Position numbers and translations under genes: made by a program. From Rubripirellula sp. (GTDB taxonomy: Bacteria; Planctomycetota; Planctomycetia; Pirellulales; Pirellulaceae), in contig OZ244207.1 of assembly GCA_965216875.1 (NCBI GenBank), positions 1,760,001 to 1,824,000 on the forward strand: a stretch of 64,000 nt of DNA, in the 5' to 3' direction. The notes beneath the pieces are model-generated. The model was not told the DNA's origin, made no database searches, and saw only the letters and a program-made list of their open reading frames with translations. This document shows, one piece after another, positions 25,610 to 56,538 of this stretch (positions within the stretch are counted from its first letter, which is position 1; every line of letters begins with the position of its first letter).

Positions 25610-26093
25610 CGGGAGGCGGCGTGTCTAGAATCTCAATGTGCCGGTTAACCAATTGAGAAGTCCGCCGTCAAGCCGAATTGAGTTTCACGCTTCTTGTGGG
25701 CGATGAGTTTGGTCGCGAGCGTAAAGTCGGGGTGGAAATTCGATCGACCAACCAGTAGCGAGCGACCGTCCCATCCGGGTTCGCATGCAACTGTTCCATG
25801 CGACGTGGGAATGATCTGACTGCAATCGTGCCGTAGCTACGCTCGCCAGAGCGTGGTGTGCGGAGTGCGGTCGTCTAAAGCGTCACCACCTCAGGCGAAA
25901 GTAGCTGCGTGTAAGGACACGCTACTTTCGCGGAGCGAAAGGCGACAAACAATGAACGGGTAACAATCCAGGCACCTCGCCTGACTCATTGCTGTTGTTC
26001 CTGTGGAGCGATTGGGTTCAGCATTGCTTGACGGCGGTGCGTGTTGCCGCGTGCGAAAACGGGTGAATTGGCGGCTACGCATTCATGCCGTTG

Positions 26094-26792
26094 TTACGTG
26101 CCTTGCAAAGGGAGGTCGCCGTGATCGAGGTCGTAGGCTTGCACATTTTTGACAGCTTGAACGATGTTCGATCCGTGTGCAACTAGCTCTTCCATGCCAG
26201 AAGCCGCTAACACATTCTCTTTGTGCATGAGGATCGCAGTGCCATGGTCTAAATCCCAACCGGTTTGGAACTCGAAAGAGCTGAATCCGCAATCGTCGAG
26301 ACCGTCGTCGACGAGCCCGATACGGACTAGTTTGTACAAATGGTCTACTGCAGTGGCGTCATTCCAATCGATGTCGTCCTGGATCTTCTTCCAGTAGTTC
26401 TGTGTGCGACGATCGGTCGGCAGGTCCTCGTCGAGGAACTGTTGCAGAGCCTTCTTGTGCTGCGCGAACAGTTTTCGGCGTAGATTTGTTTCGAGAATTG
26501 CGGTGTTCTCAAGGAGGAAATGCCAGCTTTGCTCTTGGATTTCGCAAAACCCATTTCCTGCGCTCGAGTACATGACGACTTCAACGCAGTCGCTTACATC
26601 TCGGGCCGAAGGGCAGCTCGGGTCGCACGAGGGTTGTTTTCGCTCCAACTTCAGTTTGGAGTAATGCGGGTACGGTGGGGCGTGCGAAACAATTGCTTCT
26701 CGCAACAGTGGTTTCTCCGTCCGCCACAATCGCCTGAAGTCGGACATGTCAGGATCAGGATCTGGCTGGAATCGTTCGTGAAACGCATTCAT
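26094..26792 (-). CDS. hypothetical, probable decayed cassette gene (WDxDHG motif)
   Basis: Stop lies in ACGTAAC followed by a half-attC-like sequence. Shares WD..H with 40380-40787. Confidence 0.65.
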   Translation of the reverse strand: MNAFHERFQPDPDPDMSDFRRLWRTEKPLLREAIVSHAPPYPHYSKLKLERKQPSCDPSCPSARDVSDCVEVVMYSSAGNGFCEIQEQSWHFLLENTAILETNLRRKLFAQHKKALQQFLDEDLPTDRRTQNYWKKIQDDIDWNDATAVDHLYKLVRIGLVDDGLDDCGFSSFEFQTGWDLDHGTAILMHKENVLAASGMEELVAHGSNIVQAVKNVQAYDLDHGDLPLQGT

Positions 26793-26811
26793 CGACTGAT
26801 CTCTGACAAAA

Positions 26812-27537
26812 CTAAAAATAGGTGGCGATGAAGTTGACGGCAACGTGCACGAGCATGATGTAAACAATACTTCCGGTCCATTGCCGAATGATTCCCATAA
26901 GGCAGGCACCCAAAAAGGTGTACGCCAATTGGAACCAAATGAATGATCCGATTCCGTAGGCAACTCCGGGGATGTGCCAGATTGAAAAACACGATGCGGT
27001 CAGCAGGATGCATCGATTGATCTTGATCGACTCAGTGATTGTCCCCGGAAAATGAATGGAGAACCAGCGATACAGGTAGCCAGCGAAAAATAGATCCTGC
27101 GCCGGCGGCGATATCAACCAAATCGCAATCGGCCCGCCGCTGAATGGTTTGGACGGCAAGAACGGGTAAACGAGGGCCGTTATACCGATCGGTGTGACGC
27201 ATAACCCCAACAATCGGGGCCACTTTTTCCGGAGGTTGTCACCCAGGCGTAGCCCATATCCGGTCGGGTCATGAGCGACAAGAGCGATCGCGAAAATCAG
27301 GAACAGCAGTTGCTCCGAATTGACAGTGCCGAGCGTCTTAACCAATGGCCACTCGAAGTACTTAGCCATACCAACAAGCCAAGCTGGCAGCGCGTGCGAC
27401 GAGAACACAAGCACGATCGCCAAGGTTAGAAAACCGACCGGTTGCCTTTGTGGTACCTCTTTCAGCACTTTGCTTCCCTGCAAATCGAAACATTTTGGCC
27501 AAACGGTAGGTGTCACCGACGCCCGCGAGTTGAGCAT
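26812..27537 (-). CDS. CPBP/Abi-family intramembrane metalloprotease-like protein
   Basis: Q-D-L-F-F-A-G (degenerate EExxxRG), FSIWH and MLVHVAVN. Start uncertain. Confidence 0.65.
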   Translation of the reverse strand: MLNSRASVTPTVWPKCFDLQGSKVLKEVPQRQPVGFLTLAIVLVFSSHALPAWLVGMAKYFEWPLVKTLGTVNSEQLLFLIFAIALVAHDPTGYGLRLGDNLRKKWPRLLGLCVTPIGITALVYPFLPSKPFSGGPIAIWLISPPAQDLFFAGYLYRWFSIHFPGTITESIKINRCILLTASCFSIWHIPGVAYGIGSFIWFQLAYTFLGACLMGIIRQWTGSIVYIMLVHVAVNFIATYF

Positions 27538-27752
27538 ACCCGATCAAGTCTTGTCACGTTGTGAGCGAATGTTCAATTTCGGGAAAGTCGGTTTGGGAAC
27601 ACAGGCAAAGGTACTACGATGAATCTTCATCAACGGGAAGCTGATTGAACAGTTCGGTATCCCTGTAGCGAAACGCATGACAACAGTTTGATGCCTGGTA
27701 CGCAATGGTGCAAGAAAGCTCACCCGGACCGCCGATCGGGGGCAATTGATCG

Positions 27753-28421
27753 TTATGTGGCTCTGAGTCCATAAAGCGTGTTGCCGCGTTTGCTGACAAT
27801 CGTATCGATCTGGCCAGCCGCTAAAAGGAGGCGAAGGCGTTTGTCGATCTGGCTCGTGTTCCAATTTGCAAGTGATTCGAATCCTTTTCTTTTTGCGCCC
27901 CAATTGCGAATTCGCGGTGCGTTGAAGAACTGTCCGTAATACCGTTCAAAGAACTCCATTATCTTCTGAGACAACTCATCCTCAAGCATCACGCTTTCTG
28001 CGTCTCGGCGCGTGACCTCAGTTGGTGCAGATCCACTCGCATGCTTGAGTTCCGCTACCGCATTCTTGAGTTCCTCTACTTGGAGCTCCAGCGGTGCGAG
28101 GACTGCGTTGTGTTCTCTGTTTTGTTCCGCGAGCGCATCCTGAAACTCAACGGGCCCAACTTTGGAAAACACGCGAGCCACTCGAAGCCACGGAATGTTG
28201 ACGAATAGGATCGCGATGATCGACCAAAAGGCAATGGAATCGAGACCGAGATTGTGGATGTGTTCGGCGTCCTCCGGTCTTTGATACGCCGCTTTGTAAA
28301 TGGGGATCGCTGCGGACACAAAAAAGATGGCGAAAACCACACTGACGATGGCGCGAATCGGAGCGGATAAGATCGCTAGATTCGACTGGTTGTTGAGTTG
28401 GTCTTCTTGCGTTCCGTCCAT
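27753..28421 (-). CDS. hypothetical membrane protein, probable decayed cassette gene
   Basis: Two TM helices and a coiled coil; stop within an ACATAAC R''-like core. Confidence 0.7.
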   Translation of the reverse strand: MDGTQEDQLNNQSNLAILSAPIRAIVSVVFAIFFVSAAIPIYKAAYQRPEDAEHIHNLGLDSIAFWSIIAILFVNIPWLRVARVFSKVGPVEFQDALAEQNREHNAVLAPLELQVEELKNAVAELKHASGSAPTEVTRRDAESVMLEDELSQKIMEFFERYYGQFFNAPRIRNWGAKRKGFESLANWNTSQIDKRLRLLLAAGQIDTIVSKRGNTLYGLRAT

Positions 28422-28743
28422 CGCCCTACTCCTAGCGGCCCACGTGAGCGCGGCCTGTGAGTTGAAGATTCACGATTGAAGAAGTGGGCAAGTTGCCCGT
28501 TTCTCGTTCACGCATCCCAATTGTGGACTTCGTCCGGATGGCATGAGTCGCAGACGTAATCGACTCCGGAATCGTGCAATCGTCATCAGGGAATCGGGAT
28601 GAAGATGGTTTAATGTCCCGAATTGGCGATCGTACCGCAAGTCATTAGCGTTTGCTCCCTTTCGGGTACGGGCAGCGATCACGCGCAGCTTAGGAGAACA
28701 AACCTTCAACTCAAAGTGAATGGCGCTGCTACCACGGTAGCAG

Positions 28744-29169
28744 CTACTCATTTCGGATCAAAGCTTCAATATCCATCGCCGATGCGACATAGACTGGCGG
28801 TTTTTCGTCCGTCCCCCGATCAATTGGGTTGTAGTTTCGATACGTGCGGATGCGCCACTGCTCAATGAGTTGCTTTTCGTTCTCGGGGAGGCTTTGCCAG
28901 TTCTCCCTGATCACAGCATTGTGCCATTCGTGAATCGGTTTCGCGTTGTCGCGGGAATTCAATCCTCGCCAAGTTGGCACGTCATATGGCCAGTATGGCA
29001 AAAACTCAAAGGCCACGCACGGTTCATGGGTTACGGAAACCCAAAGACCGTCGCACGTGGTGCAGCGTTTGATTTCGTTCCAATTGCCAGTTTCAACCTC
29101 ATCCAACTTGGGGAGTTTGCCGAAGGTCCAAAGCAGCCGCTGAGGTGCTTGGCAGTTGCTACAGCTCAT
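28744..29169 (-). CDS. hypothetical Cys-motif protein (cassette-derived)
   Basis: CSNC and CTTC motifs; preceded by a GTTATGC core at 29199. Confidence 0.65.
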   Translation of the reverse strand: MSCSNCQAPQRLLWTFGKLPKLDEVETGNWNEIKRCTTCDGLWVSVTHEPCVAFEFLPYWPYDVPTWRGLNSRDNAKPIHEWHNAVIRENWQSLPENEKQLIEQWRIRTYRNYNPIDRGTDEKPPVYVASAMDIEALIRNE

Positions 29170-29490
29170 GATCTTGGTGTCCGACTCTTGAGGCATAACG
29201 GCGGCAAGGAAATCGTGTAACGAATCATTGACCAGTTCCGGGGCTACTGAGCCAAATGGGTCATGTCCGCACTGGAGCTGACGCAGTGGTCCAGCCACGA
29301 TCGTTGCCAACCATTTGACTTCAGCGATCGAGGATTAGATTTTGAGCGCCATCTAGGTATTCTCTGAAGACTGTGCGGATTCCTTTCTTCGCCGAGAGGC
29401 TGGCTACGTGAGTTTGTTTGCAGCTTCCGTTTGTCTCAAAACAAATAAAGTAATACCGGTGGCGGGTTTTTGTGGTTGCAGCCTACCATG

Positions 29491-29910
29491 TTACAGACCT
29501 TCAGAAAACGAAAAGTCCGGCTCGGCGTATTCATCAACGTCCGGTCTGCAAAATGCAAAGTGATCGGAGAGGCCTTCGATCAGTCGCGTACTGAATCGCA
29601 AGACTCGCATCCTCGAACCTTGCGGCGTTGCCTCTTCGCGAACCGTTATTGAGTGATTGGCGTCATGCGCCCAGGAGCGGGTGACCACGCGGCCATCACA
29701 ATGATAGGCGAGGTCTCCGACAACGTGGATTGTGCGGTCGTCAAGGATCGACCAATGGAAGGACCAGGCGTTGCACAGAACTGGATTGTGAAAGTCGAGT
29801 CGCCCCTTCCCGTCTTCGAAGAAGATCAGCACGTCATCCGACTGCGCGCCTGGGCCGTACATGGCATCGGCACTCCAAAGACCAACCAAGTCGGAGGGAA
29901 TCAACGTCAC
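29491..29910 (-). CDS. hypothetical protein (cassette-derived)
   Basis: 139-aa ORF downstream of a truncated attC at 29931-29986. Confidence 0.65.
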   Translation of the reverse strand: MTLIPSDLVGLWSADAMYGPGAQSDDVLIFFEDGKGRLDFHNPVLCNAWSFHWSILDDRTIHVVGDLAYHCDGRVVTRSWAHDANHSITVREEATPQGSRMRVLRFSTRLIEGLSDHFAFCRPDVDEYAEPDFSFSEGL

Positions 29911-30007
29911 GATCTTTGTTGCTCTCGTTGGTGGAACGACGTCAGCACGCCACGGTCACGTGCTTCGGTTCTTGTGATGGTTCTCGCATGTTACAAGAAC
30001 GGATCTG

Positions 30008-30913
30008 TTAGGGGCGAAGATCCCGTTCCTCGATGCAATGCAGTTTTGGGACGTCCGAGATTTCGATGACGTACGACCAGCGATTTGTGCGATCGTAGTC
30101 GAACGCATGTCCCTTGATCGTTGCTTTTCGGCCAACGTATTGCGACATTGAACCATTCTTGGCAGCAACTACGACCGCGTCACCTAATTCGTAGGCTGGA
30201 AGCACGCCCATGGAACGCCCCCAGTCAAGCGGCTCAATAGAAAGGAAGATGTCGCGAACGCCTTCGAGCGGAGCTTGGGATTGCACGTTGACGTGGGCGA
30301 AATCGTCGTGCTCACTCCAGTCATCACCGATTGTTTGCTGCAGAGATTGAAAAGCCTCGGTCGGGTGGTTACGCGGCGAAAAGGCCCAACGGTACTCGTC
30401 AATCCCCGGGATCTTTGCGTAGTTGAATCCGTTCAGCCAGCTGATCCCCGCGGGTGGATCCGATACAAAGTAAGGAAGCCGCTCATAGGCTCCGTCCTCG
30501 TAGTCCTTGTAGAGTCGGAACAACGCATCTGAATCAGAAAACGCAAGGTGATCGGCAAGTTGCTGAAACTCGTCCGATGGCGCATCTAGATCGCTGTCAA
30601 TCGCTGAAACTAACAACCGTGCGGCCAACTGTTTCTCATTCCGCGCGAATTCCCACAGCATGTAATTGTTCTCAACGGAGCATTCGACAAACACGGGCGT
30701 TCGATCGATAAACCAATGTTTGAGGACACCGAAGTAATGGGGTCCCGTGCCAGCTCGCTCGAGCACCGGGACGAAGCAAGGAGGGAATGCTCGCTCGTCG
30801 TTCAGTTGACTGTAGCTATCGGCCACGGCGGGATGACCATCGACGGGTAGACGCTGAATCCAGCTGGCGAATCCGAGATCGTTAAGTACGCCGGGATATG
30901 GGTTCATATTCAT
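30008..30913 (-). CDS. hypothetical, possibly fused cassette ORFs
   Basis: 301-aa ORF between degenerate attC remnants (about 31000 and about 29980). Confidence 0.55.
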   Translation of the reverse strand: MNMNPYPGVLNDLGFASWIQRLPVDGHPAVADSYSQLNDERAFPPCFVPVLERAGTGPHYFGVLKHWFIDRTPVFVECSVENNYMLWEFARNEKQLAARLLVSAIDSDLDAPSDEFQQLADHLAFSDSDALFRLYKDYEDGAYERLPYFVSDPPAGISWLNGFNYAKIPGIDEYRWAFSPRNHPTEAFQSLQQTIGDDWSEHDDFAHVNVQSQAPLEGVRDIFLSIEPLDWGRSMGVLPAYELGDAVVVAAKNGSMSQYVGRKATIKGHAFDYDRTNRWSYVIEISDVPKLHCIEERDLRP

Positions 30914-31178
30914 TGCAAATTGCAGCCAAAATTATCGGGTTGCCGCCAGGGAAGCTGATTGCAGATTTGGCCTGTCCGGCATTTTCGGTGCATTTCTTTG
31001 TTATGCCGATTCTGGTTGACCGTGACAGTCTTCAATTGGCCCCGGCCAGAACAGGCCGCTGAACTGAAACACCCAATACTTTGAAGTGCAATGCAGGCAA
31101 TGGAACAGAGACGTTGCTGGGAGAGTCAGGTTTCCAATTGAAAAAACACGCAAGCCCGGCTGCGTGTGAATGCGGTGG

Positions 31179-31613
31179 TTATCCGCCGTCTGTTGTTGAC
31201 GGCAAAGACTCGATTGCATGTTGAATCCGTGCTCCGTAGCGTCGAATGTATTCGCGATCTGAATCAATGGCAATGGATGCAGCAAGCTCAAGTCTGTCAG
31301 GCGAGAATCGAATCGCCATCGAAAGCTGGTCAAAGAACTGTTCGTAGAAGTACCCGCCCAGCAAACGGTCAACTATTGCACCGACTAGTCGGTCGCAGTC
31401 GTCGGGTGAGGGAGGGTGGTTCTTGAAATGACGGCAAAGTTTCGCACGAGCGCGGTTGTGCCAGTAACCGAAGCTCTCTGCGGTCACAAAGAAAATCGAG
31501 CGAGAGATCGCGTCACCATCGCCCCGTTTCACGTCAGCGATCAAACATTCGAGATCGGTCTTGGAAAGTGACCGAATCCAAATTGAGGCGTACGAGGGTC
31601 GTATCGTCGTCAT
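31179..31613 (-). CDS. cassette hypothetical protein (paralog of 34013-34447)
   Basis: 144 aa with 4 substitutions versus the other copy; stop in GGATAAC. Confidence 0.75.
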   Translation of the reverse strand: MTTIRPSYASIWIRSLSKTDLECLIADVKRGDGDAISRSIFFVTAESFGYWHNRARAKLCRHFKNHPPSPDDCDRLVGAIVDRLLGGYFYEQFFDQLSMAIRFSPDRLELAASIAIDSDREYIRRYGARIQHAIESLPSTTDGG

Positions 31614-31634
31614 TCGAGCAACAGGGTTTCAGAC

Positions 31635-31723
31635 GGATAAAGGTGGCCAAAACCAGGATCGCCCAATGTGTTATCTACTTGGAACCGCGTCATGGCGATC
31701 TCCCGGGCAATTCATGGTTCGTC
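31635..31723 (-). repeat. attC, degenerate
   Basis: R'' GACGAAC; R' mutated to TTTATCC. Confidence 0.7.
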
Positions 31724-33658
31724 GACGTTTGGGCGCGAAGCTCCACTCTCGATCTGCACCAAGGGCGATTCAAGCACACCGACAACTGATCTTACACTTT
31801 TCATGAGCGCCAGATTGTTACGTTGTTCAACCGCAGATCGGGCGACGACAAAACTCAACTTACTCGATCGAACACATAATGGCACTTGGCCGTTTGAGTC
31901 AATGAGGCGGTTAGCGGGAACGACGACTAGATCTGCCTTGGGCGAGATAGTGCCTAGGTCATCTCCATCAATGATGTCTCCAGGGCCTAACACCTGGGCA
32001 ACTCGAACATCTACATGCCCGAAGTGTTCACGAAACGACTCCAGTTGTTCTCGCTTAAGGAACGCAACGATGCATGCATCCCGCTTACCCAAGTAACCCC
32101 CGGCAAAACATGCGTCCGCGATCTCTCTACCTAGACCCTCGTCATTTGCAATGAAGAAGACACCTCGCCGAAGTCTTCGCTCGCGATTTTCGGATCGCAC
32201 GGCCTCGACCGCTTCCTCGAACGGGTAATATCCGAGTTGCTTGAGTTCGTCACTCTTCGGTCTCTCGTTGTGTAACCGTTGACCTCGCCAACGAGCGAAC
32301 ACTCGGTAGTCGCTGGAGTAAAACAGGTCAATGTGCACCATATTGATATCAGGTGATGAACCATCATCTGAAATGATGAGCGGTCCCTCAGATTTGTCGT
32401 CGAACTCAATGGGCGGGATTTCGATTGACCTTCTGTTCGGTACCATGACTCGGGTTGCGTCGCGGTCGACACGCGACGGGTCTTCGCCACGTTCGGTGGC
32501 GCGAAAGTCATCAGCGATTTTGCGCCGGGTTGTCAGGACGTAATCCCGAATATTCGCTATCTGTTGGGCGTGAGTGAAGTCGCCTTGATCGACGGCAATC
32601 GTTTCCAATCGATTGAGCACGCGGTCAACGCTTCCGGCGGTGATCCCATACAGAAACCGATTTGAATTGACCAAGTGAACTCCAACGCCAGCGAACGCGC
32701 GCAGGTACCGCACGTCGGCTTCGGCTGATAGCCGATGAGAACGACTCAACACAAGCGTTCCCAAATCGCGAAGCGACGATTCAGAAATGGTTGCGCCGCC
32801 TCCGATCGCATCGATCTGAAAAAACATCTCCTCCACGATCGTACGGAACTGGTTCGGACTTACGGGCTTGCTCGCGAAATCGGCAAGATCAGCGGGCACT
32901 GAACTTGGAAACACCAAGCTGAACTCGGTAGGCCACGGTTCATCCGGCGCCGTGCAGAATGGTCGGGCGTTACCATGTTCCAACGCCTCGATGGCGCCGA
33001 TGTCGATTTCGCTTGTGCCGATCGGTTTCGCGTCGCGAGTGAGAATGACTGCCTTCCCGTAAAGCGGCAACGCGTTGCCCGGTTCTTGACTTGCCCACGC
33101 GTCTGCAGCCGTCAGCGCGATGGTCGTGTCAGAGCTTTCCAACAGCGCCGCCCATGCCGCAATCAGGCCAGGGTCATGAGATACCGCTTTGAGTAACGAC
33201 GACTCGAACGCGTTGGTAGCGTCATCAACCGATACTTCTTTCGCACGCTGTTCGATCCGTTTGCCGATCGTCTCTGCGCAGCTTCGCATATTGCGCAGTT
33301 TCCTTCGAACGGACGGATCGGAAATCTCGGATTCGGCAAGCGGGGGATTGGACAGTGTTTTAAGAGTCTCCGTCAATTGACTGAAAACCTGCGCTCGATT
33401 TGACGCGTAGACGCCGAATCTCCCTCGCCAGTAGGCAACTCTCGCCGAATTGGGAAAAGCAGTCTCGGCTTTCCTGAATGCTGTGTGAACATCAGCGGTC
33501 TTGCCCGAACCGAGGTCGACCAACGACCAAATTGCTTCGGCAATCAGTTGATCCTCGGAAATGTCAGCGGATGTCGACTCACTTGCCTCCTGAGCGAGGA
33601 TAGACGTTTGAAGAAGCGAAATCACAAGGATCGCTATGCTTCGCCGAAAAGCGGCCAC
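31712..33658 (-). CDS. large exported helical-repeat-like cassette protein (648 aa)
   Basis: Signal peptide. Cassette starts GTTCGTCGA and ends with the complementary TCGACGAAC. Confidence 0.75.
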   Translation of the reverse strand: MAAFRRSIAILVISLLQTSILAQEASESTSADISEDQLIAEAIWSLVDLGSGKTADVHTAFRKAETAFPNSARVAYWRGRFGVYASNRAQVFSQLTETLKTLSNPPLAESEISDPSVRRKLRNMRSCAETIGKRIEQRAKEVSVDDATNAFESSLLKAVSHDPGLIAAWAALLESSDTTIALTAADAWASQEPGNALPLYGKAVILTRDAKPIGTSEIDIGAIEALEHGNARPFCTAPDEPWPTEFSLVFPSSVPADLADFASKPVSPNQFRTIVEEMFFQIDAIGGGATISESSLRDLGTLVLSRSHRLSAEADVRYLRAFAGVGVHLVNSNRFLYGITAGSVDRVLNRLETIAVDQGDFTHAQQIANIRDYVLTTRRKIADDFRATERGEDPSRVDRDATRVMVPNRRSIEIPPIEFDDKSEGPLIISDDGSSPDINMVHIDLFYSSDYRVFARWRGQRLHNERPKSDELKQLGYYPFEEAVEAVRSENRERRLRRGVFFIANDEGLGREIADACFAGGYLGKRDACIVAFLKREQLESFREHFGHVDVRVAQVLGPGDIIDGDDLGTISPKADLVVVPANRLIDSNGQVPLCVRSSKLSFVVARSAVEQRNNLALMKSVRSVVGVLESPLVQIESGASRPNVDEP

Positions 33659-33754
33659 TTAAGTTCTCCGTCGAGAGTTGGTATTACCCTTCACTCGGCC
33701 CGATTTAGAGCATCATGGGGCGCCCGCGGCGTCGAAGCTCGCGGAATGTCGATC

Positions 33755-33846
33755 GACGAACGGACGAAATCACGGGAGCGGGCGAACGACTTGCAAGCAG
33801 ACGAGAAAACGAACGACCCGTCCTCCCGTTCATTTCATGGTTCGCC
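33755..33846 (-). repeat. attC
   Basis: R'' GGCGAAC ... R' GTTCGTC; same family as 53638-53730. Confidence 0.8.
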
Positions 33847-48215: not shown

Positions 48216-48305
48216 GCAGAACGTTCGCGGATAACCGGGGACGAGCGGAACTGTAACCATCACCAAACGGCCACGCGAGTCCTCCGGTTCATCCGGTTGT
48301 TATTG
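48216..48305 (-). repeat. attC (cassette 11)
   Basis: R'' CAATAAC ... R' GTTCTGC. Confidence 0.9.
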
Positions 48306-48314
48306 GATTCTCGG

Positions 48315-48899: not shown

Positions 48900-48908
48900 C
48901 TCACATTC

Positions 48909-49000
48909 CAATAACGGTTGCGTTGACCGGGCCGCGGCCAACCAACTTTGATTTCAGAAACCGCGCGGCCCGCGGCTCCGTGCCCAACGCTTTGTTCTGC
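48909..49000 (-). repeat. attC (cassette 10)
   Basis: R'' GCAGAAC ... R' GTTATTG. Confidence 0.9.
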
Positions 49001-49009
49001 CGTTTTCGT

Positions 49010-49432
49010 TTAGTCGTGCTTTAGCAAACCTTTATCTTCGAGTTGCTTTGTTTGGTGGCTGTTTTCTCGCCAGTTCGACCAAACAAACATAACGAAGCAG
49101 GCACCAATCATCCACGGCAGTATGGGGGTGAATGAATTGCGAGGGACGAACAGAAGAATAAGCGACGTCCACCCACCTATCATCGCTACACCACGCACTC
49201 CAGCCGCTGTGCGTTCCACGGAATCCTCACCGCCACTACCCGTGGCGGCGATCCACAGATTCATTGCGCCAGGCATTATGACCGCAAAGATGTATGTCGC
49301 GATCATGACTGCGGCGCCGAAGTTCAGGTCAAACGGGATACCGACCACAAAGACAAACGCCGCGAGCACTACAATCACGACGAATGCCACGACGCTGAAG
49401 ATCAACAGTTCAAATGTCATGATTCGTAGCAA
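49010..49432 (-). CDS. cassette integral membrane protein
   Basis: About four hydrophobic helices. Confidence 0.75.
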   Translation of the reverse strand: MLRIMTFELLIFSVVAFVVIVVLAAFVFVVGIPFDLNFGAAVMIATYIFAVIMPGAMNLWIAATGSGGEDSVERTAAGVRGVAMIGGWTSLILLFVPRNSFTPILPWMIGACFVMFVWSNWRENSHQTKQLEDKGLLKHD

Positions 49433-49441
49433 GCATCAAAG

Positions 49442-49533
49442 GCAGAACGGTAGGCATAACCGGGCGACCGTAATCCGGTTTCTAACTACCCAAGAACACG
49501 ATCGGTCGCTCCGTGTTCATGCCATGGTTATGC
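49442..49533 (-). repeat. attC (cassette 9)
   Basis: R'' GCATAAC ... R' GTTCTGC. Confidence 0.9.
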
Positions 49534-49537
49534 GGCA

Positions 49538-50161
49538 CTAAATTGGGTTCTGCGCGTCGAGGCGTTTCGCGAGTTGTTTGAATTCACGAAATGTCATCGG
49601 GAAGTGCAGACGCAGTCCCTTAAAAATGTTCTGTTGGTTATCGCGTTTGCCGGACGGGCGAAAACGCAGATGCAAGTAAAGTGCGTCAGGTCCAGAGCGA
49701 ATAGCGTCAGCGAGTCCATCGAGGTACTCCCGATACTCGCGTGACAACGAGGGAGACCGTCGATTACGTGATTCTATCGCCGATGCGATTGCGGCAAGGG
49801 CATCAGGCGCAAATGCGGGGTCACAATTTAGAGTAGTTGTCCACCATTCTTGGATCCGTGCTTGCCGTTCTTCAAGTTCTTGCATCTGGGTTACGGATGG
49901 CCGCCCCATCATTACCAATTGCAAGGTGGATGGTGAATGACCGTCTGGTATCGCGACACAATTACCAGCGTTGCCGAGCCGAACAAATTCTTCTGGCGTG
50001 GTGCAGTAAGTAACGTATTCGTCACAGACATTGCAGTGCCGAACACCGTTCGTATCAGTGTGTTCAAGTGACTCCCATGATTTGGGACAGAGGTTCTGAA
50101 ATGCATGATCGCAATTCCAGACTTGAGAGATGTCAAGGATAGTTAGTTGAGGTTTCGACAT
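49538..50161 (-). CDS. cassette protein with Cys-rich N-terminal domain
   Basis: F..LCPK.W..L..T....VRHC..C...V..C...G.CVA. Confidence 0.78.
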   Translation of the reverse strand: MSKPQLTILDISQVWNCDHAFQNLCPKSWESLEHTDTNGVRHCNVCDEYVTYCTTPEEFVRLGNAGNCVAIPDGHSPSTLQLVMMGRPSVTQMQELEERQARIQEWWTTTLNCDPAFAPDALAAIASAIESRNRRSPSLSREYREYLDGLADAIRSGPDALYLHLRFRPSGKRDNQQNIFKGLRLHFPMTFREFKQLAKRLDAQNPI

Positions 50162-50185
50162 CGCATTGGATCAAAGGACAACGCC

Positions 50186-50276
50186 GCATAACGGTAGCGA
50201 TAACCGAGTCGCGGCGGTTGATTCTCAATTGTCAAAAACGGCGACTCCGCGACTTCGGTTCATCGCATGGTTCTGC
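50186..50276 (-). repeat. attC (cassette 8)
   Basis: R'' GCAGAAC ... R' GTTATGC. Confidence 0.9.
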
Positions 50277-50301
50277 CCGATAGCATTTGGGTTCTGGGCA
50301 A

Positions 50302-50703
50302 TCAGCAATCTAGCAATTCGTTACGCAAAACACCAGTTTCCAAGCACCACTCAATCACTGATCGAACAAAACCTGGGGTGACCTCAAAAGCCGAAATCAG
50401 TCCTAGTTCCCAGCATCGTCGCATCCCCATTGGTGCGAACGCTGACGTTCGTTCAACACGTGTCTCGTCCTCCAGCGTGATTGGTGTAGTTGGAACCGGA
50501 ATGTTGTAACCGCTGGACGTGAGACGTGACACGAAGGAGTGATGCTCCCCGCGTCCCATCGGGTACCAGAAGTGGAGTCTCTTGTCATTCGAGACGACAA
50601 GTAGACCGGCCTCATGATCGCCGGGCCTGTGCGGCTGCACCTGCCAGTAAAACGTTTCGTCACCGACTTTGATTGCAGTCTTTCGTCGCTTGGCTACAGA
50701 CAA
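50302..50703 (-). CDS. cassette hypothetical protein (same family as 34638 and 36942)
   Basis: KRRK.I.VG..TFYW...VTPGFVR.VI; start uncertain. Confidence 0.7.
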   Translation of the reverse strand: MSVAKRRKTAIKVGDETFYWQVQPHRPGDHEAGLLVVSNDKRLHFWYPMGRGEHHSFVSRLTSSGYNIPVPTTPITLEDETRVERTSAFAPMGMRRCWELGLISAFEVTPGFVRSVIEWCLETGVLRNELLDC

Positions 50704-50735
50704 AACTAGGCCACGAGGTTGAGGTGCATTTGTTG

Positions 50736-50824
50736 GCAGAACGGCGGCCATCACCGAGGACGGCCAATGTGGTTTCCATTTTTGAACGCGACATGCCGTC
50801 CTTCGGTGGATGGCATGGTTATGT
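50736..50824 (-). repeat. attC (cassette 7)
   Basis: R'' ACATAAC ... R' GTTCTGC. Confidence 0.9.
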
Positions 50825-51298
50825 GCTCACTGGGATTACCGGAGCGGCCAAGTTAATCATAGCAACGATCCGCAACCAAAGAAATGATTGATCGTTCGTT
50901 GGTTTGTGAGCAGTGAAAAATGAGATCGGAATCGCCATCACTGCGTAGCCCCATGCGGCAATGAGAAACAGCATTGGCACGAACGAATCGCCAACCGACA
51001 AGTTGACACCCATTGCGTCGAGCAGCAGCGAAACCATGACGTAGAGCCACGCGACAATCGGCACGAAGCAAGCTGGATACGCGATCACGTAGGAAGCGAA
51101 TCTCGCTCGGTCTCTCTCGTTTGGTGCGGAAGACCACGACTTGCGAAACAGCAAGAGCTGCACGCCGCAAATTGCTGTCCATCCTGCGAGCGCAAGTTGC
51201 ACACGAAATCCAGTGCGCGGCCAGAGTTGAATTGCGAGTGCAACTCCAGTTGTCAAAAGCAGAAGATCAATGATTCGTAGTTGATACGGACGTCGCAT
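50819..51298 (-). CDS. cassette integral membrane protein
   Basis: Multiple TM helices; stop in R''. Confidence 0.78.
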   Translation of the reverse strand: MRRPYQLRIIDLLLLTTGVALAIQLWPRTGFRVQLALAGWTAICGVQLLLFRKSWSSAPNERDRARFASYVIAYPACFVPIVAWLYVMVSLLLDAMGVNLSVGDSFVPMLFLIAAWGYAVMAIPISFFTAHKPTNDQSFLWLRIVAMINLAAPVIPVST

Positions 51299-51309
51299 TC
51301 ATGTCATGC

Positions 51310-51399
51310 ACATAACGTTTAGCGTAACCGGGTGGCGACGGTTGACGTTGATTTCAAGTTCGGCGTGAATCGCCACTCCGGTTCACGCTGTTGTTATGC
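51310..51399 (-). repeat. attC (cassette 6)
   Basis: R'' GCATAAC ... R' GTTATGT. Confidence 0.9.
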
Positions 51400-51412
51400 G
51401 GCTGGCGACGAC

Positions 51413-51952
51413 TCAGGCTAAAACTTGGAATGGCTCAGGGTCGTCAGTCTGAACATCCATGTCGTGCCGAAATCCGACTAAGAGGCGTCCAAGTTCAGCC
51501 GTGAGATCGTAAACGTAATCCGCTCCGGTGTCAGCTCTTTGCTGCTCCGTAAGGCGGGCCAATATTTCATTAGCAACCGCAGGAACATCGCCATTCATTG
51601 CGGGTTGCTTTGCGGTGTCATTACAATCGTATTGGATTGACCACGCTTCATGACCGTTTTCAAATCCTACGATTTCTGTTGCCATCACGGTATCGGAGCA
51701 CCAGAAGTAGATCGTTGAAGCACCGTGTTTCGAAAGCTCTTGTGCGTCCGACGCCTCAAGGTCAGCAAAGTGGTCGGACCCGTCTGCAATTAGCACGACC
51801 CACGCATGTGCTTCTGGGTTTGGTAACTCGAGAAGATACCAACCGGTATCAGGAAAGTCGTGTCGCTCGCCAGTGATTGCTCGTTTGGATACTGCAAGCA
51901 GCTGATCCGTCGCGACTCCAGCTTGTGCTATCCAAGAAACGCGGAATCCCAT
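51413..51952 (-). CDS. cassette hypothetical protein (MGFRVSW...)
   Basis: 179 aa with a GGAG RBS. Confidence 0.78.
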   Translation of the reverse strand: MGFRVSWIAQAGVATDQLLAVSKRAITGERHDFPDTGWYLLELPNPEAHAWVVLIADGSDHFADLEASDAQELSKHGASTIYFWCSDTVMATEIVGFENGHEAWSIQYDCNDTAKQPAMNGDVPAVANEILARLTEQQRADTGADYVYDLTAELGRLLVGFRHDMDVQTDDPEPFQVLA

Positions 51953-51971
51953 GTGAAGCTCCGTAGTTGCC

Positions 51972-52061
51972 GCATAACGGTACCGATCACCGAGGACCGG
52001 CGGACGAGTTTCCGTTGTCAATTGACGACGCACGGTCCTTCGGTGCATCGGATGGTTCGTC
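51972..52061 (-). repeat. attC (cassette 5)
   Basis: R'' GACGAAC ... R' GTTATGC. Confidence 0.9.
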
Positions 52062-52125
52062 GTCTTGTCCTGTTCGGTCGGGATTGGATAGCGAAGTCCT
52101 AACCAGAGCAAACAACAACTCCGGG

Positions 52126-52392
52126 TCATAGGACGGGAGGAAAAAGTAAAGGCGAGAGCAATAGAATGATCAGCACGATCGCGATGAGAACTCTCATCGC
52201 CGCGCCGGGCCTAGTGAGGACAATCGATGCCACAAACAAAACTGTGAACAGCACGAGAAGTGCCCCAGCGAAAATGCCATATCCGTAGAAAACGGAACCC
52301 ACACGCATACCCGAAGCGATAAGTCCCGCACTTACACCAAACAGGGTCGTCGTCAAGAGCAGATGGCGTAGCCCGAAGCGAACTCGATCCAT
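52126..52392 (-). CDS. small membrane protein, second ORF of cassette 5
   Basis: MDRVRFGLRHLLL; three hydrophobic helices. Confidence 0.6.
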   Translation of the reverse strand: MDRVRFGLRHLLLTTTLFGVSAGLIASGMRVGSVFYGYGIFAGALLVLFTVLFVASIVLTRPGAAMRVLIAIVLIILLLSPLLFPPVL

Positions 52393-52409
52393 CTGTGCAT
52401 TTGGATTGG

Positions 52410-52595
52410 TCAATGGATATGCCCAAAATCCCAGATTGGATGTCCGTGCATCTGTCCACCGATTCCACCGTGGCGATGCCAAATCGGAAGACAGCCGACT
52501 ACGAAAAGTGAAACAATCGAGGTCACGAATATGAACGAACGAAGGGAAAACTGAAATTGCGGGTTGCGGTTCACAACAGAAGCCACATTTCTCAT
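52410..52595 (-). CDS. small His/Gly-rich membrane peptide, first ORF of cassette 5
   Basis: QFQFSLRSFIFV followed by a TM helix. Confidence 0.5.
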   Translation of the reverse strand: MRNVASVVNRNPQFQFSLRSFIFVTSIVSLFVVGCLPIWHRHGGIGGQMHGHPIWDFGHIH

Positions 52596-52596
52596 C

Positions 52597-52686
52597 GACG
52601 AACGTTAGCCGTCACCGGGGACGGCGGGTTGGTATTCCGTTTGTGACGACCGCATGCCGTCCTCCGTGTGAACGGCATTGTTCTGC
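52597..52686 (-). repeat. attC (cassette 4)
   Basis: R'' GCAGAAC ... R' GTTCGTC. Confidence 0.9.
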
Positions 52687-53174
52687 TCTTGTATTGTGAA
52701 GCGCATGCACAGATCCCAGATTGCTTCGTTTGAGTGCAAGAAGACAGCGGTGTCCCATGATGCATAGTCCTTGTACTCGATACGCACACGCTTCGGAGGG
52801 GCGTCATCAACGGCGAAATATATCTGCACGCCGTCGTCAATATAGACGCGTTTGCCATCAATGAGGCAATCGAATACTACGCCCTCACCGAAACTTCGGT
52901 CATCAAGCCATGCAGGATATTCGCTTGGCTGTCGATATACCGGACCGGGATCGTGTTCCGCTGAAGTAGCACGGTGAAGCACAACTACGCGAGCACGCTT
53001 GTCGTGAAAACAGATTGCGTTCGTGACCGGGTATCCGTTCGACCGCGTTCCGAGGCGGACATCCCCTTGGATGTTGGACGCGGCCGTGATTCTCCACAGC
53101 AATGGTGTCCCAAACGCAACAGCGATCGCTGCTAACGCGACGACGCTCAATAGTGTCCGAAGGGTAAATCGCAT
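52605..53174 (-). CDS. membrane-anchored cassette protein (MRFTLRTLL)
   Basis: Single ORF; reads into attC. Confidence 0.78.
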   Translation of the reverse strand: MRFTLRTLLSVVALAAIAVAFGTPLLWRITAASNIQGDVRLGTRSNGYPVTNAICFHDKRARVVVLHRATSAEHDPGPVYRQPSEYPAWLDDRSFGEGVVFDCLIDGKRVYIDDGVQIYFAVDDAPPKRVRIEYKDYASWDTAVFLHSNEAIWDLCMRFTIQEQNNAVHTEDGMRSSQTEYQPAVPGDG

Positions 53175-53180
53175 TCTGTA

Positions 53181-53270
53181 GCAGAACGTTAACGATCACG
53201 TGGTCGCCGCGAACGACTCACCACTTCAATAAACTCAACTCGGCGACTCACGTGCATCGTCTGGTTCGCC
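53181..53270 (-). repeat. attC (cassette 3)
   Basis: R'' GGCGAAC ... R' GTTCTGC. Confidence 0.9.
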
Positions 53271-53630
53271 GCGATTCTGCAATTGACGTTCGAGTTCGTC
53301 AACAATGTCGTTCAACGATTGCCGCATGCAGCCCAATGAGCACCAGAATATATTGAATTGCCCGCCGCGAATATTGTCCACAATCATATTCCGCTGCTCG
53401 ACGAACCTGCCGTCGATTGTCTCTTGCACAAAGGTCATCAGGTAACCGGCGAGTCGGTCGGATGGCCCTCCGGATCGTCGGTCCTCGGACATGAGGTGTG
53501 CCCCGCCCTGAAGTGAAATCAAGCCGTCGACTTCGGCAGTATCCCGTCCGCAAGAAGGACAGACCGAGACAAAGCAGTCGTCGTCACCGGCAGCTATGGG
53601 AAATTCAGTTGGCATTTCGGTTGATGACAT
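53235..53630 (-). CDS. cassette Cys-motif protein (duplicate of 41482-41877)
   Basis: Identical 131-aa translation. Confidence 0.8.
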   Translation of the reverse strand: MSSTEMPTEFPIAAGDDDCFVSVCPSCGRDTAEVDGLISLQGGAHLMSEDRRSGGPSDRLAGYLMTFVQETIDGRFVEQRNMIVDNIRGGQFNIFWCSLGCMRQSLNDIVDELERQLQNRGEPDDARESPS

Positions 53631-53637
53631 TTCAGTC

Positions 53638-53730
53638 GGCGAACGAAAGAAATCACGGGGGACGGGCGAAAGGCTTGCAAGCAGACTAAAAAACGCGACT
53701 CCCGTCCTCCCGTGCATTTCATGGTTCGCC
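53638..53730 (-). repeat. attC (cassette 2)
   Basis: R'' GGCGAAC ... R' GTTCGCC. Confidence 0.9.
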
Positions 53731-53742
53731 AGTTCAGTAACG

Positions 53743-54192
53743 CTAGAGTCTCAGGGACGACCTGAGAATCTCAGCAGTGAAGAAGGATAGTGTATCAGCG
53801 ACAACATTCGGCGTCGAAGGATTGCTTGTATTCAGGGACAAGCCGTACACCGGCGGGTCGTCAGTCCCGTCTGCGGAAAAGTAGTAGTTGTCCTCTGCAC
53901 CGGGGGCAACCGCAAAGATCACGTCACTCGGAGAGAGTGTCCAGATCGTACCGCGATGGAAGTCGTCGGGTGCAGTCCGTGTCCACTCGTGCAATTCGGA
54001 AACAGGGACGAAGATTTCAGTGTTGTAGAGGCGATATGCGTCAAGCAGCATCATGTCGCGATATAACTGCGGTAGTGATACCGCTAGCTGATTCTCAACG
54101 GCGTCAAGTTCGTCTACCGAACAACCACGGTGTTGAGGCAACTCGCGGAAGAAATCGAGCACATCTTGTGTCGACAATCGATGTTCGGTCAT
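53743..54192 (-). CDS. SMI1/KNR4 (SUKH-1) family cassette protein
   Basis: GCS..EL..VE..L.V.LP..YR..M and YYF.....DDPPVY. Confidence 0.8.
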   Translation of the reverse strand: MTEHRLSTQDVLDFFRELPQHRGCSVDELDAVENQLAVSLPQLYRDMMLLDAYRLYNTEIFVPVSELHEWTRTAPDDFHRGTIWTLSPSDVIFAVAPGAEDNYYFSADGTDDPPVYGLSLNTSNPSTPNVVADTLSFFTAEILRSSLRL

Positions 54193-54217
54193 CAATCGCA
54201 GTTTGAGGCTTTGTGTT

Positions 54218-54307
54218 GGCGAACGGCACGGTTCAGCGGGCCGGGGGAGTTGATTGTCCATTTGAGAAAGCGCGCAAGCCCGGCTCCGTTGCAACCGATG
54301 GTTCCCC
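54218..54307 (-). repeat. attC (cassette 1)
   Basis: R'' GGGGAAC (complement of the attI core GTTCCCC) ... R' GTTCGCC. Confidence 0.92.
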
Positions 54308-54325
54308 GCCGTTTGGGTCGCTCCG

Positions 54326-54709
54326 CTACGAGTCGGCGCGCGCCGCCAAGCGACGTTCCATTTCGGGATCCGATTTCTCCGGCAGGTCAATCAGTTCCAA
54401 TTCGTAGACCAACAATGCGTTGGCTGGAAGTTCAGGGTATGTCTTGCGTTCATCATAGGTCAAGTTGGGCGGCGCGATGACGGTCCGTCGTCCGCCAGAG
54501 CGCATCCCCAGCAATCCGTATTCAATGCCAGCGTAGCAGTCACGTCCGCCAACTCGGATTGGATATGGGGAGTCGGTATCAGAGGCAAACAGCACATCGC
54601 CTTTGCGTCGCGTACAAACGCATTGGCAGAGAGCGAGGTCACCCGGCACGCATGGCCGTCCAGAACCGATTTTGTGGTCCGTAAACTTGAGGCTACGTGG
54701 CGGCTTCAT
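54326..54709 (-). CDS. FKBP-type peptidyl-prolyl isomerase-like cassette protein
   Basis: G.G...PGD, GL.GM..GG.R...PP.L.Y and LPANA.L.YELEL. Confidence 0.85.
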   Translation of the reverse strand: MKPPRSLKFTDHKIGSGRPCVPGDLALCQCVCTRRKGDVLFASDTDSPYPIRVGGRDCYAGIEYGLLGMRSGGRRTVIAPPNLTYDERKTYPELPANALLVYELELIDLPEKSDPEMERRLAARADS

Positions 54710-54718
54710 TCTTCAGTC

Positions 54719-54745
54719 GGGGAACTTATTTATCAGCTGTTGAAC
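54719..54745 (-). other. attI recombination site (crossover G|TT at 54725)
   Basis: Minus strand CAGCTGATAAATAA-GTTCCCCG. The core matches R'' CGGGGAAC of cassette 1, and there is no attC hairpin upstream. Confidence 0.85.
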
Positions 54746-55044
54746 GGGTGAGAATAGGGCGTGCTGGCTGTTCTCACTGGGTGGACCTTCGGTAGGGTCG
54801 GTGACACGCGCCTTGATCCTCGTATTCTCACTGGTCGCTCCAGTATTCTCACCGGGTAGGTGACAACCACTCTGGGGGTATTCTCGCCGTTGGCTTTCAG
54901 GTTGTCAAATTTCGAATCGTTTCCAGTGAATAGGGTTATCGCGGATTACCGCAGTTATGTGAACAAGTGTTGACTGTACCTTTGGAGGGGGTCATAAAGC
55001 CTGGGTATTGGAGTCAATCACCGCGAACGGGGCAGGGTTTTCTC

Positions 55045-56538
55045 ATGCCGTTTTTTGAGCGAAAGGGGCGCAGGGATCGCGACTCAAAATGGGCGAAGAT
55101 TTGGTTTGGCAAGCTCGCGAAGTTCCACAACGAGAAAGAGAGTCCTTTGTGGGAGTTTTCGCGAGAGCAGGTGATCGCGTTCCTGCGCGATCGGCTCGCT
55201 GCCGGATACCCTGCGTGGAAGCGACAGAGCATCGTCAAAGGTTTGATTGCTTATCGGCGTGACATTCAATGCCAACCCTACGACGATCTGCTTGATCTTC
55301 AAGACACACTTCGAGAGCTCGCGGTTAAGGAACGAGTGAGGGATCAGGGTGTGAAGGACATTGAGGATCTGGTTGGCAAGATCAATCCCAATGAACCGGA
55401 CATCATCCAAGACTTGCGGCGAAAATTGCGGCGCGAAGGCAAGGCGTATGCAACTGAGCGAGCCTACGTTGGTAAGTTGAAAGCGTTCATGCAGGCGCGC
55501 GGGTTAAAATGCCGCTCCGATTTTGCCACGATTTCAGGGGCCGATGTGGAGGCACATTTGACCGATCTCGCGGTTGACGGCAACGTTGCTCCATCGACTC
55601 AAAACCAGGCGTTCCATGCTTTGTTGTTTTTGTTCGAGCATGTGCTTAAGCGAGACATCGGTCGAATCCAGGCGATTCGCGCGTCCAAGGGCAAACAGAT
55701 TCCGACGGTCTTGAGTGCATCAGAAGTGGAGAAGGTGTTCTCGCATTTGACCGGCGTCCATTTGACCATCGCCAAGTTGCTTTACGGTTGTGGCATGCGG
55801 ATCGGGGAAGCGATGCGGCTTCGTGTGAAAGACATCGATTTTGAAAACGGACGGATTGAAATCCACCAGTCCAAAGGGGGCAAGAGCCGATTGGTCGGGC
55901 TGCCCTTGGACTTGATTGAGCCGCTCAAGCGTGCGTTGCGCTCAAGGCGAGTCCTCTATGAAAACGATGTCGCGGATGGGACGGCATCAGTATGGCTGCC
56001 ATACGCGCTTTGGCGCAAGTATCCGAACGCGGCCAAAGATTGGCGCTGGCAATTCGTATTTGCATCCGATCGACTCTCTCGCGATCCACAAACCAATCAA
56101 TTGCACCGACATCATCTGCATAAGGATACTTTCTCGACTCACTTGAGGTGTGCCGTCGAACGCTCCGCTGTTGAAAAGGCGGTAAGTACTCATACATTCC
56201 GTCATTCATTTGCGACTCACCTGCTGAAACAGGGGACTGATCTTCGCGTGATTCAGGAATTATTGGGGCATCAGGATATTGCAACGACAACGATCTACAC
56301 TCACGTCTTCGATGATGAGCGGGTTCGATTTGTGAGTCCCCTTGACCGGATCCCCAAAAAGTCACCCGTAAAGGAAATGGCCGGATCGTGTGATGATCAG
56401 CAAGCGGAACGCAAGTCGCAAAGCGGTGTTGCGAAGTTCCTGGAGTTATCGACCCGTCTCTTTGCGTGGAGCGAGATTCTGAGAGAACGCAAGCTGCAAA
56501 AACGTGCCGATGTCGAGCAGATTGTCGCGCCGAGGTGA
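55045..56538 (+). CDS. intI: integron integrase (tyrosine recombinase) with N-terminal extension
   Basis: [12 protein letters not shown], IntI insertion [14 protein letters not shown]...W.WQFVF...RDP....RHH, HTFRH, LGH and IYTH. Confidence 0.96.

Follow-up and report, generated by a model that had tools for sequence, protein, structure and literature searches.

A sedentary chromosomal integron in a Pirellulaceae-like planctomycete, with cassette arrays probably distributed over several attI platforms

The window analysed here is a stretch of 64,000 nucleotides from a planctomycete genome assembled as a single contig of 8.26 Mb (G000:C1:1760001-1824000), and it carries a large integron: an integrase gene (intI), an attI insertion site and a long array of cassettes closed by attC sites. 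The locus is chromosomal, lying between an efflux operon and a two-component system, and the G+C content is about 57% in the flanks versus about 52% across 26-54 kb of the window. No transposase family was detected among the 53 window proteins scanned, which places the integron in no transposon or plasmid. The intI gene (54967..56538, + strand) is divergent from the array and comprises an open frame of 523 aa, with a likely start at ATG 55045 (497 aa). Its product matches TIGR02249 with 412.6 bits (cut-off 265; frame residues 146-462, model positions 1-315), and it is the one copy over this cut-off in the whole genome. It is a tyrosine recombinase with the IntI-specific insertion and with all catalytic residues intact (R278, K303, H409, R412, H435 and Y444), these being invariant or nearly so across 55 homologues. 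The best fold match of its predicted structure (predicted local distance difference test, pLDDT, 86) is VchIntIA (PDB: 2A3V). In this long integrase about 115 residues stand ahead of the usual IntI.

The attI simple site (54719..54737, - strand) consists of an L box GCTGATA, a 5-nt spacer and an R box G↓TTCCCC, in which the arrow marks a crossover between 54725 and 54724; the G of the GTTCCCC core is window position 54725 on the - strand. A promoter resembling the cassette promoter Pc (TTGACA-17-GAGAAT; 54880..54908, - strand) is aimed into the array and agrees with the consensus at 10 of 12 positions, where 0.2 such matches would be expected by chance. Five copies of the motif G(T/C)GAGAA(T/C)A occupy 54748..54887 on the - strand, four of them direct (54879-54887, 54844-54852, 54823-54831 and 54769-54777) and one inverted (54748-54756). 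They sit 22-162 bp before the crossover, with the inverted copy nearest to it, and are treated below as putative accessory IntI sites.

Cassettes 1-28 (38534..54724, - strand; 291-999 bp), whose open reading frames (ORFs) lie on the - strand and read away from intI and attI, are each closed by an attC. In all 28 the R'' box is the exact reverse complement of the first 7 bases of its own cassette, as a first-pass annotation of this DNA had claimed for the run from attI to cassette 28. The R' box of the same attC matches the cassette start in only 4 of 28, and when the 28 cores were shuffled 100,000 times the highest count was 12 of 28. Such complementarity follows from every cassette retaining its own 7-bp core. 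The perfect run stops at cassette 29, and overall 31 of 39 are perfect. The attC sites measure 89-95 bp in 27 cases and 78 bp in the case of attC 27 (39080..39157, - strand), which has lost its L' arm, in agreement with the annotated size range and its one truncated site. The geometry proposed at first, R''-5-L''(8)...L'(7)-6-R', holds generally, except that alignment gives attC 11 (48216..48305, - strand) a 7-nt L'-R' spacer; several L boxes are imperfectly paired, and the mean identity among the sites is 55%. None of the 29 cores matches GTTRRRY, again as first noted, position 4 being C in 15 and A in 14. The extended consensus GTTRRRY/RYYYAAC is typical and not universal, and this departure leaves integron membership unaffected because only AAC is conserved in all sites (PMC5027507).

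The + strand of the sites folds as an attC bottom strand, giving the attC-type hairpin with extrahelical bases on which the first-pass annotation had staked its reading. Among 26 intact, non-duplicate sites 98.4% of 494 cells are paired, and 14 of the 19 pairs in the attC structure show changes on both sides. Covariation is 0.645 against 0.149 in shuffled and at most 0.115 in slid versions, a comparison that favours the attC structure over the slid ones, as it was drawn from the same 26 sequences. The extrahelical bases, 6 bp apart, are a C in 24 of 27 sites and a T that is invariant in 26. The probability of folding into the recombinogenic form has a median of 0.65 and exceeds 0.1 in 25 of 26 sites, under an approximate constraint. 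With a covariance model 39 sites, a lower bound, are detected on the window's + strand; they decay from site 29 onward and carry the array to about 26,000.

Two cassettes recur as exact copies. Cassette 2 (53644..54223, - strand), which holds an SMI1/KNR4 gene, is identical at 580 of 580 positions to cassette 2 of an integrase-less array at 237-246 kb of the genome, and cassette 3 (53187..53643, - strand) at 457 of 457 to cassette 23 (41434..41890, - strand), which has other neighbours; in both cases the identity ends at G↓TT. One public run from this organism contains both neighbour junctions of cassette 2 and gives it a depth of 2,256, beside 1,314-1,437 in its neighbours, roughly what two copies would add up to; the junction in the integrase-less array also occurs in a run from another study. 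These observations bear on the simplest rival explanation, that the intergenic repeats are a family of terminators or of elements like repetitive extragenic palindromes (REPs), and that the duplicates are assembly errors or products of homologous recombination. The genome is indeed rich in REP-like palindromes. However, the covariance-model matches fall on one strand and in four arrays of the genome only, the repeats are complementary to the starts of their own cassettes (28 versus 4 of 28), the duplicates end at the crossover point, and cassette 2 has roughly the depth of two copies. We regard this explanation as refuted by the complementarity test and its chance as negligible.

All parts of a complete integron are hence in place, namely intI, an attI simple site with G↓TT, attC anatomy and a chromosomal position, and we are nearly certain that the locus is a true sedentary chromosomal integron (SCI), recently active to judge by its sequence footprints. 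Two results weigh against this. The minimum free energy of the bottom strand is below that of the top in only 16 of 28 sites, so that a generally more stable bottom strand had to be rejected, and no excised circle or new junction appears in the assembled contigs of four public runs. Six candidate joints in the public runs have short sides (26-33 letters) and are all explained by other arrays, which disposes of them as instances of cassette shuffling. The initial identification of a sedentary integron bearing the footprint of IntI insertion is thus borne out by the IntI match, the complementarity, the attC fold and the ends of the duplicates; its word "active" stands as recently active on the evidence of the DNA, no excision having been observed. 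Runs X5, X6 and X7, from three other studies, contain short pieces at least 99% identical to intI and many cassettes, which puts this lineage, or one very near to it, in other samples as well.

Besides the window array, the genome has three further arrays, at 237-246 kb, 1,143-1,147 kb and 3,525-3,542 kb, with 14, 8 and 26 attC model matches respectively. With at least two attCs and no intact intI nearby, these satellites fit the definition of clusters of attC sites lacking integrases (CALINs). Each of them starts with the same platform of about 190 bp, comprising promoter, repeats and attI, at 88-93% identity. In the alignment the Pc-like promoter forms the upstream edge of the platform common to the satellite arrays, all five repeats align across the four platforms of the genome, and a platform search finds exactly four places. 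The leading perfect run counts 28 cassettes in the window, 9 in the 237-kb array, 2 in the 1,147-kb array and 0 in the 3,542-kb array, in which attI has A in place of the G and decay sets in by cassette 4. Ahead of the last array lies an intI fragment (frame residues 25-71, 47 codons, 72% identical), the only remnant among the satellites. As the platforms differ by 12% and the shared cassette is 100% identical, the sharing postdates the duplication of the platforms.

Comparable arrays exist in four other complete genomes. Of 11 integrase-less arrays, picked from 150 listed of 357 matches and from platform searches, 9 start with an attI platform and 7 show direct complementarity to cassette 1. 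In G182 all five satellites have an intact attI and a matching first cassette, and no intI remnant was found in the 8-kb stretches examined. In G074 three of four have a platform and two a matching first cassette, one of these beside a 3' intI fragment (95%), while the single satellite of G281 has a platform 100% identical to the intI-linked one and that of G132 has none. The L166 array of G281 is interrupted by an apparent insertion-sequence transposase and another tyrosine recombinase that is no IntI. In four further genomes (G096, G247, G159 and G331) we noted 4-6 intI matches each, which suggests that whole platforms multiply within genomes.

We consider it likely that the arrangement is distributed, with distant arrays served in trans by one IntI. 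Copies of the platform would have spread in the genome and lost intI while keeping the Pc-like promoter, repeats and attI, as in 3 of 3 other arrays, one with an intI fragment; the sole remaining IntI would then shift cassettes among the four arrays, as the identical shared cassette and the gradient of freshness suggest. Since they keep the Pc-like promoter, repeats and attI, the satellites could in principle both receive and express cassettes. Alternatively, the three arrays could be frozen relics of complete integrons that donate cassettes and no longer receive them, their platforms persisting through recent loss of intI or selection on Pc. Such loss is a recognised origin of CALINs (PMC4889954), the intI fragments at the 3,542-kb array and beside one G074 platform would fit it, and every satellite is more decayed than the window array. 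Yet on platforms that are 7-12% apart the shared cassette shows no difference and takes second place from attI in both arrays; the 237-kb array is headed by nine fresh cassettes; conservation includes the attI crossover and the repeats, beyond the promoter alone; and the five G182 satellites combine intact attIs and matching first cassettes with the lack of intI remnants in the stretches examined. We therefore deem frozen relics unlikely. Other points tell against a distributed arrangement: ahead of two of the 11 arrays (L165 and L171) no platform was found, the genome G025 has one platform only, and the direction in which the shared cassette was transferred cannot be told, so that the satellite may be a donor only. 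Partial platform matches at L167 and L172 have no attC nearby.

The residues ahead of the usual IntI include a predicted four-helix domain (55057..55356, + strand; pLDDT 90), which profile and predicted fold assign to a diverged second core-binding (CB), SAM-like domain. It is aligned by hhalign to the IntI CB domain with a probability of 88.7 and E of 2.5e-6 (catalytic-domain controls, 0.3 and 0.1). Its top structural match is the CB domain of Cre (Z 8.2, root-mean-square deviation 3.5, 93 aligned), the CB domain of IntIA gives Z 7.3 (3.9, 87 aligned), and the best four of 48,161 chains are the CB regions of Cre, IntIA, the Brujita integrase and XerA (Z 8.2-6.6). Z values of 6.6-8.2 are middling for a helical fold, and the profile and fold lines support each other, neither standing alone. 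With the isolated domain Foldseek gave no match at E <= 0.001 (E >= 0.12), no Pfam SAM cut-off was passed (PF02899, 17.4 bits, below 22.3), and no SAM family was matched among 51 members; the profile of the domain itself is matched by 636 cluster representatives. By these models it is a diverged second CB-like domain, with putative DNA binding.

Long integrases are shared with relatives. Among 134 intI loci (113 without duplicates), classed from the listed best-scoring matches on long contigs and not at random, 44 including that of the window fall in a clade A and 23 in a clade B, with a homologous extra domain in both; the contig scan by catalytic motifs covers the matches listed and gives no measure of the range of the long IntI. 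In a quick, midpoint-rooted tree of 140 rows, made without a clade test, all long IntIs lie on one side of a branch with a Shimodaira-Hasegawa-like approximate likelihood-ratio (SH-aLRT) value of 100. This side has 65 rows and also holds three frameshifted or truncated clade-A copies, one truncated clade-B copy, Rhodopirellula europaea (Pirellulaceae), a metagenome-assembled genome (MAG) of Planctomycetaceae and a second integrase of G074. The planctomycete affinity proposed in the first-pass annotation agrees with this placement and with the 142 sites that the attC model finds in the R. europaea assembly. Outside both clades, the IntI of L016 (genome G009) has a recent, readily seen tandem CB duplication, a two-CB layout that by its sequence is of independent origin.

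The pyrimidine-rich cores extend to these relatives. Cores of the RRRY type were found in 0 of 154 called attCs of 85-100 bp in clade A, 0 of 53 in clade B and 2 of 38 with short IntIs, and adjacent complementarity in 118 of 122, 34 of 39 and 8 of 17 respectively, although calling with a window-seeded profile biases these figures towards the present type. Their absence in long-IntI relatives (0 of 207) marks the odd cores as a family trait. An outgroup control yielded 10 chain-supported sites in 5 of 35 loci (3 RRRY; 3 GTTC, from one Planctomycetia locus), too few to use. Among individual loci, L196, from a Planctomycetia MAG, has five attCs of 88-89 bp with GTTCG-type cores downstream of intI on the same strand, an inverted-integrase layout. 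At L133 (G159) a single R'' is common to 7 of the first 11 attCs, at intervals of 325-345 bp, as if one small cassette had been inserted again and again. Searching with a covariance model, as had been suggested at the outset, turned up sites, besides those of R. europaea, in 19 of 120 other genomes sampled from the phylum. An IntI occurs in 164 of the 301 genomes of this family.

That standard models under-call this lineage-specific attC family, a further suggestion of the first-pass annotation, is supported indirectly by published calls in R. baltica and by the canonical R boxes of a Planctomycetes attC model described below. The IntegronFinder supplement (PMC4889954, file 12) lists four R. 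baltica attCs of 89-90 bp with E values of 0.0002-0.29 and cores GTTATCC, GTTATTC and, twice, GTTCGTC; the locus has a 2,347-bp gap with several short ORFs and is split into a CALIN and an In0, with intI 8 kb away. The weak calls, the gap and the split suggest under-calling. Odd cores are thus already published as data, weakly called, in the IntegronFinder tables of 2016. Since only AAC/GTT is universal in attCs, the sequence of the core reportedly does not matter in itself, and a swap of R boxes leaves the strand choice of an attC intact (PMC5027507), they are probably mechanistically neutral, and they are less surprising than the first-pass annotation had scored them. More unusual than the cores are the attI platforms of the satellites, the integrase with two CB domains, the attI rich in repeats and the array's orientation, none of which the first-pass annotation brought up.

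Genome-wide, clusters of the repeat motif occur at the four platforms only. Between lineages the motif varies together with the attI L box, and in many relatives a copy of the repeat occupies the attI L-box position, -13 to -17; attI itself keeps the same position and register in clade-A relatives. Leaders with at least four copies of a 9-mer within 200 bp number 19 of 24 in clade A, 0 of 12 in clade B and 3 of 16 among short IntIs, counts that include only loci with a located attI (53 of 113), among which kin are not independent, and that are descriptive. By analogy with DR1 and DR2, attI1's direct repeats, it is plausible that the repeats are accessory IntI sites of the attI L-box type, which would serve as extra half-sites of an enlarged attI. 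Two points weigh against this role. The repeats are not top matches to the attC L' weight matrix (1.6 bits; 2% of the background scores as high), and their equation with the attC L' box was dropped after this weak test; moreover, the first repeat overlaps the Pc -10 box, which makes a regulatory role possible. The repeats might then be operators of a regulator, or of an autoregulating IntI, acting on Pc and the integrase promoter Pint and not recombination sites. Besides that overlap, this reading draws on the likeness of the motif to a -10 hexamer, on an inverted pair 22-52 bp before the crossover and on planctomycete LexA, which uses no E. coli box (PMC3108266). With clusters at four platforms only there is, however, no regulon, and the motif co-varies with the attI L box between lineages, and we find operators somewhat unlikely.

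A bolder proposal would make the extra domain a dedicated, lambda-type arm-binding module for the repeats, a control of directionality or site selection new to integrons. The predicted CB-like DNA-binding fold, the frequency of repeat-rich clade-A leaders and the conservation of the domain over one whole branch (65 of 140 IntIs) speak for such a module, whereas clade B has the domain with 0 of 12 leaders reaching four repeats, and three of 16 short-IntI leaders do reach them. For the latter reasons we rejected the notion that the domain tracks the repeats, which by sequence follow a subclade instead. Binding of the repeats by the extra domain is accordingly uncertain, and a dedicated arm-binding module appears just as doubtful.

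Other features of the platforms may be recorded here. A palindrome ACC-GAA-GGT (54793-54801, - strand), often after GTGTCAC, is conserved between repeats in roughly half the clade-A platforms and might form a mini-hairpin or be bound by an architectural protein. At the clade-A loci L066, L124, L126 and L128 the gap between intI and the platform ranges from about 150 to 1,550 bp and can hold REP-like repeats; given this variation, the platform acts as a module separable from intI. Behind intI in the window lies a cluster of REP-like palindromic repeats (56582..57091), and related clusters precede three satellite platforms. At least three REP-like palindrome families are present (window 25780-26010, 23830-24050 and 56582-57200), with 29-353 clusters each genome-wide. 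Families at 29 and 353 clusters genome-wide are not integron-specific, and their role as a platform-specific mobility signal was rejected on this account.

Beyond cassette 28 the array is decayed (26000..38533, - strand), with 11 more attC matches (19-65 bits) and remnants; it also holds a 648-aa gene. Two distal cassettes (33985-34537 and 31151-31703) share 97% identity across 553 bp, and remnants with R'' only lie near 34,018, 29,985, 27,758 and 26,095. Partial attC remnants in distal cassettes (34638-34676, 33930-34018 and 30917-31105) suggest fusions between attCs or deletions during decay. Few cassettes encode products named by Pfam: FKBP (cassette 1), SMI1/KNR4 (2), DUF6985 (25 and the last gene), SUKH-3 (26), DUF4240 (29), DUF7674 (33) and a CAAX protease. 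The cassette proteins scanned yielded no toxin-antitoxin, defence or resistance family, and a defence or toxin-antitoxin cargo was rejected (PADLOC, 0 of 41; NCBIfam, two weak families only). Cassette 13 (47399-47689; 291 bp) has no convincing ORF and may be a cassette without a gene or one carrying a promoter. VTC-domain, DUF4956, HlyD-like and outer-membrane efflux genes (20976-25609) adjoin the array at its distal end, and past intI follow the two-component system and an S41 peptidase.

The cumulative GC skew of the genome has its minimum at 6,254,227 and its maximum at 2,113,611, and a dif-like arm lies at 2,113,418. Read in this way, the skew has the fork pass through the window in the + direction, which puts the attC bottom strands on the lagging-strand template; strand counts of long ORFs, FtsK-orienting polar sequences (KOPS) and tRNAs give no support to this reading and lean weakly the opposite way. 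Of 30 SCIs, 5 had this orientation, none with more than 22 cassettes (PMC5371416), and it is costly in V. cholerae (PMC11023631). In the window at least 39 readily folding attCs coexist with an intact integrase. With no toxin-antitoxin, defence or resistance family detected, the cost of the orientation may be lower.

Recombination of the attC bottom strand with attI or with another attC by IntI is an established mechanism. From the anatomy of the locus, IntI would recombine the folded bottom (+) strand of an attC with attI, inserting the cassette at G↓TT beside Pc, and attC x attC recombination would lead to excision; an enzyme that reads structure would tolerate the pyrimidine-rich cores of the lineage. 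The second CB-like domain, given its predicted fold, would add non-catalytic DNA binding. Taken as a whole, a recently active, distributed sedentary integron of a Pirellulaceae-like planctomycete is the explanation in which we have considerable confidence. The most far-reaching form of it is possible and offered tentatively: one planctomycete IntI with a duplicated CB domain would serve several Pc-attI stations in trans, each capturing and expressing cassettes, and an enlarged, repeat-rich attI bound by the extra domain would favour insertion strongly enough to sustain a 40-cassette array in an excision-prone orientation.

Integrase-less attC clusters are common, and their origin and status are at issue; four possible origins have been listed, in work in which attI could not be searched (PMC4889954). 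Here attI is recognisable, and the platform is kept in 3 of 3 satellites and in 9 of 11 arrays of relatives. If the far-reaching form holds, many CALINs would be live sites of insertion and expression and not relics, and the retained platforms open insertion in trans to a direct PCR test in Pirellulaceae that can be cultured. The two-CB IntI clade, together with an attI of 4-6 repeats, provides a natural handle on the recognition of double-stranded attI, for which no structure was available as of 2016 (PMC5027507). With IntI in 164 of 301 family genomes and 142 attC matches in one assembly, the cassette pool is probably undercounted by standard models. A literature search that covered few subscription papers found no report of attI-headed satellite arrays, of a two-CB IntI or of the anatomy of Pirellulaceae integrons.

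Like the V. cholerae superintegron and the Xanthomonas SCIs, the present integron has a divergent intI, a Pc-like promoter, an attI with G↓TT, a long array of promoterless and mostly unknown genes, and attC hairpins with 5/6-nt spacers and extrahelical bases. Unlike in those SCIs, its cores are never RRRY, its attCs are 55% identical on average, and its IntI has a second CB-like domain. The first extrahelical base, usually G, is C here; the T is conserved and a distance of 6 bp is required for IntI1 (PMC5027507). The at least 39 attCs with bottom strands on the lagging template stand against the at most 22 in the 30 SCIs (PMC5371416). The Planctomycetes attC model of PMC8352920 (188 attCs, 103 positions), compared by eye only, resembles the present sites in an L'' with an extrahelical top-strand G fourth, then GGA, and in a similar L'. 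Its R boxes are canonical (R'' GCCTAAC, R' GTTAGGC), and its converted emission table gives G at R'' position 4 about 5% and C at R' position 4 about 7%, versus C in 15 of 29 here; the present sites differ further in their length of 89-95 bp, with about half of the cores GTTC.

Like class 1 attI1 with its DR1 and DR2, the attI platform has additional core-like sites on the upstream side of the simple site, at about -22 to -30 and about -44 to -52. DR1 and DR2 favour attI x attC recombination and are absent from attIA (PMC8946536, PMC3146285), which has no counterpart of the five repeats (PMC8946536). Here, however, the sites number five, span 160 bp and mostly have the orientation of an L box, where attI1 has two direct repeats within 65 bp (PMC3146285, PMC8946536). 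As tyrosine recombinases with an extra N-terminal DNA-binding domain, RitA, with two sequential CB domains, and the arm-binding integrases resemble the long IntI. In the classes as given in PMC8138268 two CB domains are listed for RitA only and integron integrases are simple CB plus catalytic (CAT) proteins, whereas here a predicted tandem CB occurs on a true IntI and appears helical and CB-like, not of the arm-binding fold. Finally, like CALINs, the satellites are attC clusters without a neighbouring intI beside a complete integron (PMC4889954). Mobilisation of CALIN cassettes by an IntI elsewhere has been raised (PMC4889954, PMC9668308, bioRxiv 10.1101/2025.06.18.660453), the passages concerned mentioning no retained attI, and the definition of CALINs omits attI because it could not be searched (PMC4889954). 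Unlike CALINs as so defined, the satellites of this genome keep the Pc-like promoter, repeats and attI.

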